DNA of 64,000 nucleotides from a virus. Lineage: Duplodnaviria; Caudoviricetes. Both the position numbers and the translations under genes were made by a program. Within the stretch, counting starts at the first letter, position 1; every line of letters starts with the position of its first letter. The notes under the pieces are model-generated. The model was not told where the DNA came from, did no database searches, and was given only the letters and a program-made list of their open reading frames with translations. Positions 37,195 to 60,969 of the stretch are shown piece by piece. The stretch lies in IMG/VR virus record IMGVR_UViG_3300027847_001698. One strand, written 5' to 3'.

Positions 37195-37431
37195 ATGAAA
37201 GATTTAGTTAAGATTATCGCAGAGAATATATGCGACCAACCAGATAGAATACAAATAGAAGAAGTAGAAACAAATTCTGCAAGTATTATAGAAGTTTCTG
37301 TAGCAAAAGAAGACTTAGGTAAGATGATTGGCAAAAATGGTAAAACTGCACAAGCTATCAGAACTTTAATATACGCATCAAGTTTTAAATACAACAAACG
37401 ATACAGCTTAGAAATTATAGCTGAATCATAA
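37195..37431 (+). CDS. khpA: KH-domain RNA-binding protein, KhpA/YlqC family
   Basis: MKDLVKIIAENI...VAKEDLGKMIGKNGKTAQAIRTL with a GxxG loop; bacterial-type. Confidence 0.85.
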   Translation: MKDLVKIIAENICDQPDRIQIEEVETNSASIIEVSVAKEDLGKMIGKNGKTAQAIRTLIYASSFKYNKRYSLEIIAES

Positions 37432-54245: not shown

Positions 54246-54474
54246 AATCTAATCCTTTAGATGTTTTAGATGGTTATATGTTTTCCTTTCTCACATATAG
54301 ATATATGTAGAAGGGTCAATTGAAACCAAATAAAATTAAGGAACAAAAATTAACATTATATTAGAACCTAAAAATCACAAAAAGATGTTATATGAATCAG
54401 TATCTGTTACATTATACACAGAAAGTTTATATGAAAACTAGAGGCGTGAATGTTAACCCCCAGAAGACGCGGAA

Positions 54475-54897
54475 ATGAACCCAATACAAATATTCTTACA
54501 AGAAGCTTCACCTATACCACCTATTTTTTATCACGGATCTCCCAATCCAAGAATTAAAATACTAAGACCAAGATTAGATCCGAGAACTGGAATCACGGGA
54601 ATTTTTGTTGCTGCAGACATATATGCTCCATATGCATTTTCCTTGTTACCAATACGGCATAAATCAACAGTAAATTTAAAAACTGTGGGTGGTAAGTTTG
54701 TTTCGGGTAAAGTAGTATCCCCAGTACCCCTTAATGACAAAGGATATCTATATACTATCAAACCCCATCCAGATGATATGGTGGAGCGATTGCCAGGTCG
54801 ATTTCATTTAATCAAACCAACTCGTATAATAAAAAGAGAACTTGTAACCATAGAAGATGTGAAGAAGATGGGATGGGAGATAACAATTAAGAAATGA
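54475..54897 (+). CDS. ADP-ribosyltransferase-fold-like protein with a CTS-like leader
   Basis: FYHGS...GIFVA...Y...GYLYTIK resembles Arr/ART H-G-S/T...Y motifs; leader MNPIQIFLQE/A. Confidence 0.55.
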   Translation: MNPIQIFLQEASPIPPIFYHGSPNPRIKILRPRLDPRTGITGIFVAADIYAPYAFSLLPIRHKSTVNLKTVGGKFVSGKVVSPVPLNDKGYLYTIKPHPDDMVERLPGRFHLIKPTRIIKRELVTIEDVKKMGWEITIKK

Positions 54898-55439
54898 AAT
54901 CTATCCAGATATTTTTAGAAGAATCCACCACCCGAAAAGTATTAGCTCATATAGCAGGACCTTCGGGAAGTGGCAAGACAACTATTGCAACTGTATTAGC
55001 AAAAAAATATCCTAACATAAAATTTACAGACTTAGATGATTTTGATGATGAAGCTGAGCGATTGTTGGGATGGGATGGCATTAAGAAAAGAAAGTATACT
55101 AATAAAATGTTGTATACTCTATACAAGAAGAGACAGCAGTTACTCGACAATCATATTAGAAGTAGCAAAAAACCTATAGTATATGTTGGTCATCACTTAG
55201 AAGCAGAACATGTTTTAAAGATACCAACAGACAATAGATTTCTCCTTAATGTAGATGCCAAGACATCTGCGTACCGAGGATGGAAGAGAAGCCAATCTGA
55301 AGATCCAAAATATCGAAGACTTAAAAAAGAAATTCCTGATGATGTTCGTGCTGCTCAAGAAGATATTGATTGGTTGAAGAAAAATAAATATGTTGTAATG
55401 TCCCCTAAACAAATAGATAAGTGGATAAAAAACCAATGA
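54894..55439 (+). CDS. P-loop kinase/NTPase with a CTS-like leader
   Basis: AHIAGPSGSGKTT, TDLDD; leader MKSIQIFLEE/S. Confidence 0.8.
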   Translation: MKSIQIFLEESTTRKVLAHIAGPSGSGKTTIATVLAKKYPNIKFTDLDDFDDEAERLLGWDGIKKRKYTNKMLYTLYKKRQQLLDNHIRSSKKPIVYVGHHLEAEHVLKIPTDNRFLLNVDAKTSAYRGWKRSQSEDPKYRRLKKEIPDDVRAAQEDIDWLKKNKYVVMSPKQIDKWIKNQ

Positions 55440-56083
55440 AATCTATCCAGACATTTTTAGAAGAAGCGATTGAGAGAACTAAATCTGATCCAAAGTATCT
55501 GTATCATTATAGTGCTCAACCAAGAAAAGAAATTTTAACAAGAGAAGCACAAGGAAATATATCAAAAGATAAACTGGCTGACGAAGAATCAGCAGCAAAG
55601 TTTAGATCAGAGAAATTCATATATTCTAAACATGTATCTCTCACATTTGATCACTTACCTTTGGATATCATCTTAAAACATTTCCCATCGGACCACCATA
55701 CATACAAACCAGGAACTACAATCTATCGTCACGATATCTATATACCTGACTTAGAAGATATGTATTGGAAGGTTGGTGAATCCCCTTTAAGTACTTTTAT
55801 GGGTGATTATCTATGGATGAAATTAGATTGGTATAAAAAGATATTCTTCAAACTAAGAAGAACCGGTAGGATACTCAACAAAGAAGAAGGGCAAGGTACC
55901 CAATCCATGTTAAAAGCTTCAGCTAGATATTCTGGCACATATCGACATTACTTTCAAAAGCTGGTGGATAGACCTGACTTCCAAAAAATGACCGGCATGT
56001 ATGCTCCTAACGTGCCACACATTTTTCTATACCCACCCAATGGCAAACTCATTCCGAAGAAGATAGAGAAGGTCAAATTGTAA
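55436..56083 (+). CDS. Hypothetical (possible ART-like) protein with a CTS-like leader
   Basis: True start at 55436 by ATGA overlap, MKSIQTFLEE/A; LYHYS...HVSLT...IYRHDI. Confidence 0.7.
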   Translation: MKSIQTFLEEAIERTKSDPKYLYHYSAQPRKEILTREAQGNISKDKLADEESAAKFRSEKFIYSKHVSLTFDHLPLDIILKHFPSDHHTYKPGTTIYRHDIYIPDLEDMYWKVGESPLSTFMGDYLWMKLDWYKKIFFKLRRTGRILNKEEGQGTQSMLKASARYSGTYRHYFQKLVDRPDFQKMTGMYAPNVPHIFLYPPNGKLIPKKIEKVKL

Positions 56084-56173
56084 ATGAAAATTATTAAAAC
56101 ATTTTTAGAAGAAGCGATTGGGAGGACTAAATCTGATCCAACGCATCTGTATCTAAATTTGAAAAACTTTTAA
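56084..56173 (+). pseudogene. Truncated duplicate of the 5' end of the 55436 gene (29 aa)
   Basis: MKIIKTFLEEAIGRTKSDPTHLY versus MKSIQTFLEEAIERTKSDPKYLY; about 55 nt near-identical. Confidence 0.75.
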
Positions 56174-56193
56174 ATACACCTTAAAAAAATATT

Positions 56194-56397
56194 ATGATTA
56201 TTACCGAAGTAGTAGTAAAAAAGAAAGATGGTTACTATCTATATAGTAAGGATAAGTCAAGGAAGTTAGGAGGTCCATATGATACAATGGACGAAGTTAG
56301 AAAAAGAGAAAGGCAAGTTCAATATTTTAAACACAGAAGAGAACACTTGATCATTTCTTCAAAATTTGTTTTAGTGGATAAACTTTTAAAATATTAG
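56194..56397 (+). CDS. Small basic phage protein
   Basis: VVKKKDGYYLYSK...KLGGPY....VRKRERQVQYFK pattern common in T4-like phages. Confidence 0.7.
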   Translation: MIITEVVVKKKDGYYLYSKDKSRKLGGPYDTMDEVRKRERQVQYFKHRREHLIISSKFVLVDKLLKY

Positions 56398-56593
56398 GAA
56401 ATGTTAAAAAAAGTTTATAAGATTTAAAAGTTTTTATAACTTTATTAATCTTAAAATAACTATCTAGATATACTAGATTTAGGAGATTTATGTAAATGGT
56501 TGTAACAGCAACATTTATTCGATAACATATCTTTTTTAAATTTATAATAAAAAGTATTGTATAAATTATAACTAAAAAACATGGGGGAGTTTA

Positions 56594-56971
56594 CTACTCC
56601 CTCCCCCTGTTTTCTTCCCATTCCTGAGATACCTTCCTCCAGTATATATCCAATCGTCGTTTCTTCTTTGGTCCCGCCTTCCTCCATTCGGGTCCACCAT
56701 TCCAAAGCCTTGCGACTTCTTCAGGTGATTTTTCTTTGTACCGTTTGGCGTATTGAATACATACCCAACGGGCAAGTGATTCATGAATCATGTCTTCCAA
56801 TGTGTAATTGGTCCCACAGAACTCGTTTACATCGATAAGACAACCTCGCCGAATTTGCAAAGGCCCATATGCTCCCTCTCGAACTATGGCTGCTTGTGCT
56901 TGTTTTGTGGTCTTTGGTGACTCAACTGCAATCATCGCAGCTAACAACCCGATCCATACTGACGGTTCCAT
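56594..56971 (-). CDS. Lysozyme-like (i-type/SLT fold) protein with an N-terminal signal or anchor
   Basis: IAVES...AYGPLQI....IDVN...ARLWNGGP; GGAGG RBS. Confidence 0.75.
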   Translation of the reverse strand: MEPSVWIGLLAAMIAVESPKTTKQAQAAIVREGAYGPLQIRRGCLIDVNEFCGTNYTLEDMIHESLARWVCIQYAKRYKEKSPEEVARLWNGGPEWRKAGPKKKRRLDIYWRKVSQEWEENRGRE

Positions 56972-57015
56972 ACTACTACCTCCAGGTTAATGCATTAAAA
57001 TTTGATTTCTTAAAA

Positions 57016-57033
57016 GTTAATATATATAGACAA
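57016..57033 (-). promoter_or_regulatory. Recurring promoter motif TTGTCTATATATATTAAC
   Basis: Upstream of the lysozyme-like gene, just after the terminator of ncRNA-C. Confidence 0.7.
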
Positions 57034-57044
57034 AATCCATACAA

Positions 57045-57692
57045 AAAAAATGAGAGGGGGTCTAGTCCCTTCCCATTTTTTTGTAACCGCAATTACATTT
57101 AAGATTTTCATCCTAGTCGCCGATTGTCTGTGTATAGACCAGTTATTTAGCGTGTCCTTAAATAACATTCTTTGCTAACCACTTTTCCCGTAAAAGGAGG
57201 ATAGTTAACTTAGATACACATAGAGAAGCTCAACGTCAAACTCCTGTTACAAAGTTTAAGATTCTTCTCTGTCGGGGATAATACCGAAGTAGGAACTTTC
57301 GGTCGGACCATGGATCTTGAACCATATTGTGGGGTGACTGAGATTAATCCTAGTTTAGTTTAATACAAGTGGAACCGTCATTTACCTAAAATCTCTTTCC
57401 ACTTTAAAAACCGAACACGATAAGACTAACCGTCCCATGACATAAATCAACAATTCAAATAAAACAGATCAGTCGTAATTGGTGGCTGGGAAGTCGCAAA
57501 TACTCTCCGTTAACAATTACATCTATCCTATCGTCCTCGTCAAATGTCGAAAATACAAGGGAAATGTTTCGCCTGTATTTTCAAGTTTTCGAAAAGAATA
57601 TTACATGTACACGAATCAAAATGATTTAGCTTCTCTGCTCAGGCGAAGCTGATCAAATCGACATCATATAACAAAACTCTCGTCCTCTCATA
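57045..57692 (-). ncRNA. Candidate ~640-nt structured ncRNA (ncRNA-C) including its terminator
   Basis: No ORF of 60 aa or more within it apart from a spurious overlap at the edge; promoter variant at 57694-57710; terminator at 57042-57082; at least six local stems plus 5'/3' complementarity. Confidence 0.65.
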
Positions 57693-57758
57693 ATTTAATA
57701 TATATAGATATAGAAATCTAAAATCAGGTAGATAATACTCTACCTTATTTTTCAGTCA

Positions 57759-58430
57759 TCAATCGACCGATCCTTGATCATTAGAAGACTCTGTAGATTT
57801 AGCCATTGGATCACCATTAACGGCCTCTATGTTAGTAGGCTTCTCTGCAAGATCACTCACATCTACAAAGTCTGCAAAGTTTAGAGGAAAGCCCCCATCC
57901 GGTACTTCTTCTGTGGGACCATCTAATAATTCAAGGCCCATATTATGGTTCTCCATTTCAGTTCCTTCAGTCAATTCATTAAGAGTAGTCTGAATGATTT
58001 CAGATAATTCTTCCCCCACTAAATCATTGAGTAAATCAATTTGCATGACACTTGTATCTATTGAAACTTTTCTATATTTGATCCCTAAAGTAGAACTAAG
58101 AAATGTTACAAGATCACCGGCTTCAGCTTCAGTATACTTTTCTTCTAGAATAGGAAACATTTTTTCTCTTAACAAATCTAATTTACTCATCATTAGATCC
58201 ATAACCGTGTTTATAACTTCCGTTTGAGAATCAACTATTTCGGATTTCTTTTTTTCCAGCTCGGCTTTTAGGTCGGGATCTGTTTCCTCTCCAATAAGAG
58301 TATCAGTATTTTTTACTCCAAATGATGCAATTGCACTTATGATCGGATCGGATTGATCTTTGATAAGATCTTCATCATACATAATTTCTACTAACTGTTG
58401 ATGTGGGGTCTTGGTGGTCGAGTCGGCCAT
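57759..58430 (-). CDS. DUF2059-like protein
   Basis: EEKYTEAEAGDLVTFLSSTLGIKY resembles the DUF2059 core. Confidence 0.55.
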   Translation of the reverse strand: MADSTTKTPHQQLVEIMYDEDLIKDQSDPIISAIASFGVKNTDTLIGEETDPDLKAELEKKKSEIVDSQTEVINTVMDLMMSKLDLLREKMFPILEEKYTEAEAGDLVTFLSSTLGIKYRKVSIDTSVMQIDLLNDLVGEELSEIIQTTLNELTEGTEMENHNMGLELLDGPTEEVPDGGFPLNFADFVDVSDLAEKPTNIEAVNGDPMAKSTESSNDQGSVD

Positions 58431-58536: not shown

Positions 58537-59028
58537 CTATGCCGCCTTCTTCTCGTCCTTCTTCTCGTCCTTCTTCTCGTCCGTCATCTGGAACTCGAGG
58601 AAGCGGGCGAAGACTTCTTTCTGGCCCTCGGTATTTGTCGGAATTTCGACGGAATGGTCCTTCTTTACCATCCACTTGTGAAACTCCGATGATTCATTCT
58701 GGAGGTACTTCAGAGCATCCTTCAGTAACTTAGTCGCTTCCGCCTTTTCCTGTTTTTGGGCGAGCACATTCAACCCCTCCGCGTCTGGTGTCGGACTGAA
58801 CGCCGCCAAGATACGGCACCGATGATTGTTCAGCGCTTTCTCCTGACGTTGGAGATTCGAGATTAATTCATCAGCCTGTTTCTGGGTGAGCCGACCAACA
58901 GACACCAGTGCATTGATGTCGTCTTCCCGCCAGACGAAGGAGTCGCGGCGACGGATGGAACTGATCTGGCGGGAGTTATTGACAACCCCCAGTAACAGTA
59001 ACACGTTGATAATTGATTGGACTAGCAT
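58537..59028 (-). CDS. Hypothetical protein (GC-richer than its neighbours)
   Basis: GGAGG RBS, promoter motif at 59127-59145, DEKK repeat tail. Confidence 0.75.
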   Translation of the reverse strand: MLVQSIINVLLLLGVVNNSRQISSIRRRDSFVWREDDINALVSVGRLTQKQADELISNLQRQEKALNNHRCRILAAFSPTPDAEGLNVLAQKQEKAEATKLLKDALKYLQNESSEFHKWMVKKDHSVEIPTNTEGQKEVFARFLEFQMTDEKKDEKKDEKKAA

Positions 59029-60285: not shown

Positions 60286-60603
60286 AATAAAAAGGATGGT
60301 AATTATGTTTTAATTTGTTCTAGTATATTGGATTTCATACTGGTAATTTGCCTAATCATTACATTATAATAAAATTTAGTTTGCATTGAAGGATTATTAA
60401 TTCTAAAAGAAGGAACTAGAATTCTTCCTTTAGTTACGTATCCCCCAATTGCAACAGTAGTACCTGAGAATGAATAATAACAAAAAATAATCAATCGTGG
60501 ATAGTTCATAAAAAAAACAAGGGGTAAACCCTATTTCAAAGGTTACGTGTGAAATAACATGTCATCTCATAAGTTAATATGTATAGACGGAACAAACCTA
60601 TAT

Positions 60604-60969
60604 ATGAAAATTATACAGGAATATTTAAACGAAGCAAATATCTTCAAGGACATTTTATCTGATGTCAGAAAGAAGGGAAAAGATCTAATCCAAAAATTAA
60701 GCAAGAAAGCTGCTATTGAATTAGAAAAGGATATTAGAAAGAGCCTGACTGAAAAGGGATTAATTATATCTAATCTCAAATTAAGTCTTGGTAAATTCAG
60801 AGGAAGTTATTTTGTCACTTCATGTAAGTTATCAGTGAAGCCCAAAGGACGTATTTTTAAAACAGATACACAAGCAGAAAAACTATTAGTTTTTCTGCAA
60901 TCGGACTTTAGTCCAAAATTCAAATTAAAATCAGTTTCAGATGGTGAAGCTCATTTTAATGTGAGGTAA
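60604..60969 (+). CDS. Basic hypothetical protein with a CTS-like leader
   Basis: ATG at 60604, MKIIQEYLNE/A; GAACAAA at 60590. Confidence 0.75.
   Translation: MKIIQEYLNEANIFKDILSDVRKKGKDLIQKLSKKAAIELEKDIRKSLTEKGLIISNLKLSLGKFRGSYFVTSCKLSVKPKGRIFKTDTQAEKLLVFLQSDFSPKFKLKSVSDGEAHFNVR

Follow-up and report, generated by a model that had tools for sequence, protein, structure and literature searches.

What is made from a long stretch of phage DNA in which no gene can be called? This question is raised by a gap between two minus-strand genes, which encode proteins of 223 aa (positions 57759 to 58430) and 125 aa (56594 to 56971), in a 64,000-nucleotide stretch of viral DNA from IMG/VR (referred to here as the window). 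An earlier reading of the letters alone (the original prediction) had described this gap as a large, end-paired, structured RNA with its own promoter and terminator, possibly of a new class. Here, we ask whether the gap is devoid of coding capacity, whether it is a transcription unit in its own right, whether its product exists as RNA, and what such an RNA might be.

The window derives from a marine jumbo phage that has not been cultured. Its portal protein is of the T4 type (Pfam PF07230), and the nearest cultured portal relatives are found in the AR9/PBS1 group and among other jumbo phages, at only 24 to 26% identity; no close portal relative was found in IMG/VR. Proteins of the window were also found on metagenome contigs of up to 229 kb. 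The gap sits in a variable stretch of small minus-strand genes, and both of its flanking proteins are lineage-specific ORFans, so that synteny is of no help in the search for homologues.

No frame of the stretch reads as a gene. Stops of all three kinds occur in six of six frames, at 14 to 24 per frame, and the longest ATG-initiated ORF (52 aa) extends through the terminator described below. A three-periodic Markov model, for which 49 long ORFs of the window served as the training set, gave the stretch between −9.5 and −14.3 bits per 100 nt whichever frame was read, with negative scores in all sliding windows, whereas each of six real genes used as controls (including genes of 49 and 67 aa) had one frame at about zero or above. 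Further, the small ORFs of the stretch were never called among 15 billion proteins, the 787-nt gap was left empty by gene callers on 10 of 10 metagenome contigs, and searches of the stop-free pieces against Pfam and PHROGs returned nothing significant. The RNA unit is therefore without protein-coding capacity, in agreement with the earlier statement that it holds no credible ORF, and no relic of a known family was seen in the stop-free pieces.

The transcript might still be taken as an mRNA for one or more micro-proteins, candidates being a 33-aa ORF at 57311 to 57210 and one of 12 codons whose ATG lies at 57691. We consider this extremely unlikely, as these tiny ORFs have no convincing ribosome-binding site and are covered by the negative sliding-window scores and the empty protein search given above. 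In addition, the ATG at 57691 is part of the promoter consensus and is common to five of the nine promoter copies in the window, and the ORFs that follow those promoter ATGs end within 2 to 18 codons where they are read through.

The composition of the gap also sets it apart. No other ORF-free gap of the window is as long (656 nt at a 60-aa ORF threshold), and with a GC content of 0.36 to 0.38, compared with 0.35 for coding DNA and 0.24 to 0.31 for most gaps, this gap is among the most GC-rich ones, as had been noted from the letters. A long GC-rich intergenic region in an AT-rich genome is the feature by which GC-IGR screens select candidates for structured noncoding RNAs (ncRNAs), and the gap is such a region.

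Signals on the minus strand delimit the stretch on both sides. The upstream 223-aa gene is closed by a terminator-like hairpin of its own at 57726 to 57745 (minus strand), with a 7-bp stem followed by a U-rich tail (−9.8 kcal/mol, z = −3.6), and the RNA unit is hence no run-on of that gene. An early-type promoter follows at 57688 to 57712 (minus strand), consisting of the core CTATATATATTAA at 57707 to 57695, then ATTATG, and then A57688 as the predicted start. The promoter that had been placed at 57694 to 57710 is thus recovered, with its core at 57695 to 57707, and the core is overrepresented: with one mismatch allowed, the 13-mer has nine copies in the window compared with 0.75 expected (at 1023, 16103, 25703, 35363, 57017, 57695, 59129, 60574, and 61895). 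When aligned, these nine copies yield the consensus TTGTCTATATATATTAA-yTTAyG-A/G, with a purine 7 nt past the core in nine of nine; the copy at 57695 to 57707 is without the TTGT that is found ahead of most other copies. A sigma-70-like promoter at 57691 to 57663 was also considered and was rejected, since its start would fall near 57656, at odds with the RNA end observed in the libraries described below.

At the other end, an intrinsic terminator lies at 57043 to 57082 (minus strand), comprising an A7 run, an imperfect 9-bp GC-rich stem, a 7-nt loop, and U8, which corroborates the terminator originally placed at 57042 to 57082. The hairpin itself (57075 to 57051), flanked by the A7 and U8 runs, has a folding energy of −17 kcal/mol on the minus strand and −18 kcal/mol on the plus strand, and the element is predicted to work on the plus strand as well. 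Directly after it comes the next copy of the promoter core (57017 to 57029, minus strand), which serves the downstream 125-aa gene. As that gene has a promoter copy of its own, it has no need of read-through from the RNA unit, and the position of this copy directly after the terminator means that the ORF-free stretch is not the leader of the 125-aa gene. With the terminator of the upstream gene, a promoter, a hairpin-U8 element, and the downstream gene's own promoter all in place, the ORF-free minus-strand stretch is an independent promoter-to-terminator transcription unit, which upholds this part of the original prediction. Other ORF-free cassettes of the window showed no similarity to the unit except for the promoter.

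Another of these promoter copies, CTATACATATTAA, which lies within 60510 to 60586 on the minus strand, is located at the start of a gene on the opposite strand (60559 to 60969, plus strand), and about 55 nt downstream of it there are a weak GGG/CCC hairpin and a T8 run. These elements could specify a short antisense RNA.

The early promoter of phage AR9 has the form AAATATATATTAT-(6N)-G+1 and is read by the virion RNA polymerase without new protein synthesis (PMC5312081). The promoter core of the marine unit agrees with this early consensus in 10 of 13 positions, with the same 6N-purine spacing; in this comparison, made at the level of sequence, it shows both the AT-rich extended consensus and the purine 6 nt downstream that characterize AR9-type early promoters. 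The promoter therefore resembles the early class that is read by AR9-like virion RNA polymerases and may belong to it, and by the spacing in AR9, transcription would start at A57688. The likeness to the early units of AR9- and phiKZ-type phages comprises the promoter motif and its spacing, and the portal of the marine phage is distantly AR9-like. In contrast, the AR9 early units described drive protein genes, and the word "noncoding" is absent from PMC5312081, whereas the unit considered here yields a noncoding RNA. A candidate late promoter motif of the window, AGAACAAA, includes the AACA that forms the core of the late promoter of AR9, AACA-(6N)-TA/G.

Is the unit transcribed? Words of the stretch are present in 15 metatranscriptome runs, nine of which hold at least half of the sampled words, and the libraries containing the RNA were filed in 2019, 2023, and 2025. 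Contigs of four of these runs (X9, X10, X12, and X18) were placed on the 20 kb around the unit. Their spans are 57086 to 57672 in X9, 57087 to 57663 in X10, 57119 to 57663 in X12, and 57089 to 57677, in three pieces, in X18, which was filed in 2025. The contigs of the first three runs are 545 to 587 nt long and come from libraries that were filed in 2019 and contain only 190 million to 330 million letters each. The predicted product thus exists as RNA, with contigs over 57086 to 57677 in public metatranscriptomes. The RNA runs were chosen for holding this stretch, so that their contigs provide no valid ranking of expression and abundance cannot be derived from them. In X9, X10, and X12, nothing but the RNA contig covers the interval from 56007 to 58007, which, in runs selected in this way, is no measure of relative abundance; likewise, its depth in X12 is 58 compared with 2 to 5 for the few other phage contigs, and contig depths cannot rank genes.

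The libraries also reveal where the RNA begins. In X10 and X12, the plus-strand contig passes straight into the Illumina Read-1 adapter GATCGGAAGAGCACACGTCT after 57663, which indicates that many inserts end at this position and that it is a defined RNA end; as the plus strand has an A at 57663, the last base of the insert may instead be 57662. A minus-strand RNA with its 5' end at 57662/57663 fits this arrangement, given that Read 1 is antisense in common stranded protocols, and the orientation of the adapter together with that of the promoter and terminator points to the minus strand. The observed end lies about 25 to 30 nt inside the 5' end that had been proposed. Taken together, the contigs of the four runs assemble an RNA body at 57086 to 57663 (minus strand) with its main 5' end at 57662/57663. 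A short 5' leader (57664 to 57687, minus strand) is present in some RNA contigs, which reach 57672 in X9 and 57677 in X18, and is absent from the adapter-marked main species; contigs of this kind are expected if 57688 is where transcription starts and processing occurs at 57663. At the other end, the contigs of three RNA runs break off at 57086 to 57089 without a loose end where DNA contigs continue; this fits either 3' trimming or the drop in cover that is usual there, and is at most a weak hint of where the 3' end lies. No joint between 57663 and 57086 was seen in the RNA contigs, so nothing suggests a circular form. On this evidence, we are highly confident that the product is a discrete noncoding transcript.

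We hypothesize that an RNA polymerase injected with the phage genome reads the early promoter, by analogy with AR9, and that transcription would start near 57688 and stop at the hairpin-U8 near 57043, so that the primary transcript would measure about 645 nt. The RNA that accumulates would start at 57662/57663, either through removal of a leader of about 25 nt or because a strong RNA end exists there, and would run at least to 57086. No protein would be made from it; instead, a stable RNA would act in trans early in infection, as a scaffold or decoy for a host or phage RNA-binding protein rather than as an antisense regulator. The window encodes a full-length KhpA-type KH protein (37195 to 37431, plus strand; Pfam PF13083, E = 5.5e−21), and this protein may be one candidate partner. 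The timing in this scheme is borrowed from AR9, and the stability of the RNA is likewise presumed.

The explanation that we favor, with modest confidence, is therefore a stand-alone gene for an early, trans-acting long ncRNA that is trimmed at its 5' end and stable, with a scaffold or decoy as its most likely mode of action. That the RNA is functional as an RNA seems to us probable; the scaffold or decoy role as such is a guess, and a tentative one. A bolder version would make it the founding member of a new family, i.e., large early RNAs of marine AR9-like jumbo phages that are made by the injected polymerase within minutes of infection, are shortened at their ends to a stable RNA of about 580 nt, and serve as a protein-sequestering scaffold or self-assembling particle with the KhpA-type protein as candidate partner; we regard this as speculative and rather unlikely.

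A scan of the whole window with cmscan at gathering score gave no hit to any Rfam family, and in the 951-nt region around the unit, only two noise hits (sraA and sR11) appeared at E ≤ 10. The scan covered ROOL (RF03087), GOLLD, OLE, and all other 4227 families, which we take to include HEARO, raiA, and the marine IMES RNAs. The original prediction, which could match the RNA to none of ROOL, GOLLD, and OLE, is borne out by this proposed comparison, which stayed empty of all but noise even at E < 10.

Homologues were also sought in IMG/VR and in JGI metagenome contigs, and none was found. By blastn in distant mode, no homologue was found in 50,697 phage records, and the same was true of plasmids. 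None was found by nhmmer or blastn in 15 IMG/VR loci located via the neighbouring metallophosphatase, by BLAST in 11 whole IMG/VR records, or on the contigs of the nearest metallophosphatase relatives (48 to 51% identity). Exact-pattern scans of IMG/VR returned no homologue and a single chance match, in a coding region; JGI metagenome contigs gave only chance 19-mers in GC-rich genomes, and GTDB genomes gave only chance 18-mers in unrelated contexts.

The claim of a large ornate structured RNA fared less well than that of a transcript. The folding z-score of the whole RNA was −2.6 (578 nt) or −3.2 (545 nt) and reached −3.66 when the terminator was included, compared with a mean of −1.54 (standard deviation, 1.33; minimum, −4.9) for 16 sense-strand coding windows of the same length from the same phage. 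Mean positional entropy was 0.94, compared with 1.12 ± 0.26 in 30 controls, and ensemble diversity was also inside the control range. Folding energy and definition are hence no better than those of mRNA of the same phage, and the stability or definition beyond background that marks structured ncRNAs was not seen. At the local level, every one of the stems listed earlier is present in the predicted fold, several of the predicted hairpins are well defined (p ≥ 0.9), and the hairpin at 57584 to 57547 is strong on its own (z = −5.96).

The long-range features that had suggested paired ends dissolve on closer inspection. The 8-bp pairing of the 5' AUGAGAGG with CCUCUCAU in the terminator arm is matched by 10% of shuffles; it loses three bases if transcription starts at 57688 and is absent from the species that starts at 57663. 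A second proposed pairing near the ends, GUCGAUU with AAUCGGC, is equalled in 18% of shuffles. The description of the RNA as end-paired is accordingly at chance level, with the start at 57688 and the main end at 57663 cutting the AUGAGAGG arm away in part or completely. With an 8-nt loop and a z-score of −0.14, the T-loop-like hairpin is again at chance level. A leader-trailer duplex that might act as an RNase III processing stem was rejected, a colinear duplex being equalled in 9% of shuffles. Internal repeats of the RNA are only 9 to 13 nt long, and GGA motifs are not clearly enriched in a count made by eye.

ROOL and GOLLD, the RNAs with which such a molecule would be compared, were reportedly described by Weinberg in 2009 and 2017. 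They are encoded by phages or prophages, measure roughly 580 to more than 800 nt, may reach high abundance, have been studied by cryo-EM, and often, but not obligatorily, lie beside tRNA genes or islands (PMC12286853). The marine RNA is like them in its phage origin and its size class (about 580 to 645 nt), is seen as RNA, includes the well-defined hairpins just described, and has a folding z-score of −2.6 on the minus strand compared with a less stable −1.0 on the plus strand. All of this would suit a large ornate RNA whose ends pair, whose tertiary fold is specific, and which founds a class comparable to ROOL or GOLLD. However, it matches neither covariance model, nor any other in Rfam, at E < 10; its end pairings and T-loop-like hairpin are at chance level; its global z-score and entropy are ordinary for the phage; and the tRNA-island setting is not found, ARAGORN having detected 0 tRNA genes in the whole 64 kb. 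Such an ornate RNA is, in our judgment, improbable.

Natural variation offers another view of the unit. Ten contigs of the phage population are 99.9 to 100% identical across the locus, with the RNA unchanged, and the length of the cassette is equal on all contigs, with promoter and terminator intact, whereas neighbouring genes vary. One contig, L025, is 98.4% identical and has a single inserted base in the 578-nt RNA body, compared with 16 changes in the 378-nt neighbouring gene (Fisher P = 3e−6); against the noncoding flanks, which have 3 changes in 184 nt, the contrast with the RNA body is weak (P = 0.046). Since 15 of the 20 differences in L025 cluster within about 200 nt (56787 to 56984), a recombination patch is no less likely to explain the contrast than selection on the RNA.

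These observations bear on the main rival to the favored explanation, namely, that the unit is the transcribed relic of a dead gene cassette: an early promoter-gene-terminator cassette would have lost its ORF and would now yield a functionless RNA as a by-product. In favor of a relic, small ORFan genes elsewhere in the phage are flanked by promoters and terminators arranged in the same way, both neighbours are lineage-specific ORFans in a variable region, the folding statistics are mRNA-like, and homologues were not found. However, with 14 to 24 stops per frame and no residual coding signal, the decay would have to be old, and promoter, terminator, and length are nonetheless intact on every contig. 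Further, the GC content is above the coding mean, and near-full-length RNA contigs from small libraries would be at odds with the rapid degradation presumed for an untranslated mRNA. We therefore consider a relic unlikely, though it deserves to be weighed seriously.

Two other roles can be assessed from the same data. An early, independently transcribed RNA with many hairpins could regulate mRNAs of the host or the phage by base pairing, or could be the precursor from which several small RNAs with such targets arise, and sRNAs are known in jumbo phages (PMC11512511). The RNA contigs, however, are continuous over 545 to 587 nt, and complementarities within the window are only 14 to 17 nt long and at chance level (E = 0.44); we hold this role to be quite improbable. 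Alternatively, the DNA itself might be the functional element, as an R-loop-primed replication origin or a packaging signal, with the RNA being secondary. A long gene-free stretch with a strong promoter is what is found at oriF and oriG of T4. Against such a cis-acting element, the region has no iterons or notable repeats, the cumulative GC skew does not turn here, and the stretch is GC-richer than other gaps rather than AT-rich, which makes this reading very unlikely.

The favored explanation, an early ncRNA gene, has its closest counterparts in other jumbo phages. In PA5oct, the orphan ncRNAs ncRNA001, ncRNA002, and ncRNA004 were recognized from RNA-seq; they are 236 to 619 nt long and of unknown function (Lood et al. 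2020, PMC7318152), and ncRNA001 and ncRNA002 are highly transcribed and were reported to be without similarity beyond the closest isolate (PMC7318152). The marine RNA likewise comes from an ORF-free transcribed region of a jumbo phage without relatives outside its lineage: it has no plausible ORF and no outside similarity, and its transcription is documented by RNA-library contigs and an adapter-marked end. The PA5oct ncRNAs are transcribed by the host RNA polymerase and have no known promoter, whereas the marine unit has a phage-type early promoter and an intrinsic terminator; the marine RNA is also known from environmental RNA libraries and not from an infection time course. It has no sequence similarity to any phage record. 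Our best reading is that it is an early, lineage-specific long ncRNA of the same kind as these orphan RNAs.

In the giant phage 201phi2-1, 10 of 92 units that run from a transcription start site to a terminator are without a coding sequence, which was taken as a hint of unannotated ncRNA (PMC11512511). Such units in 201phi2-1 and phiKZ are alike to the marine one in being start-to-terminator units of jumbo phages without a coding sequence (PMC11512511); the sRNAs of these phages, in contrast, are shorter than 250 nt and mostly derived from 5' untranslated regions, whereas the marine RNA is 580 to 645 nt long and free-standing. Jumbo phages have repeatedly been found to make large lineage-specific ncRNAs of unexplained role. 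The marine RNA is an orphan of this kind, real as a transcript and unproven as a structure, but it is a defined molecule that can be synthesized and probed without a cultured host, and, should it have a function, the early takeover of the host by phages equipped with a polymerase of their own would gain an RNA component.

The genes around the unit provided some additional observations. The 125-aa protein (minus strand) has a hydrophobic N terminus; the AVES...GPLQIR that comes next looks, by eye, like the catalytic motif of lytic transglycosylases, and a search of the protein against Pfam and PHROGs gave nothing. Its only relative is a 95% variant, with 7 synonymous and 6 nonsynonymous codons, in which the differences cluster in the N-terminal third. 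In a minus-strand gene of 163 aa, a low-complexity repeat that codes for (KKDE)n (58545 to 58582) is not of constant length among metagenome contigs, 12 nt being inserted in L018 and 12 nt deleted in L022 and L023; this repeat also draws unrelated metatranscriptome contigs, so that read depth there is unreliable. In the plus-strand array at about 54400 to 55450, gene content differs among the otherwise 99.9% identical contigs L016 to L018: L018 has an extra 170-aa gene, and in L017 a 110-aa gene replaces the 181-aa kinase of the others.
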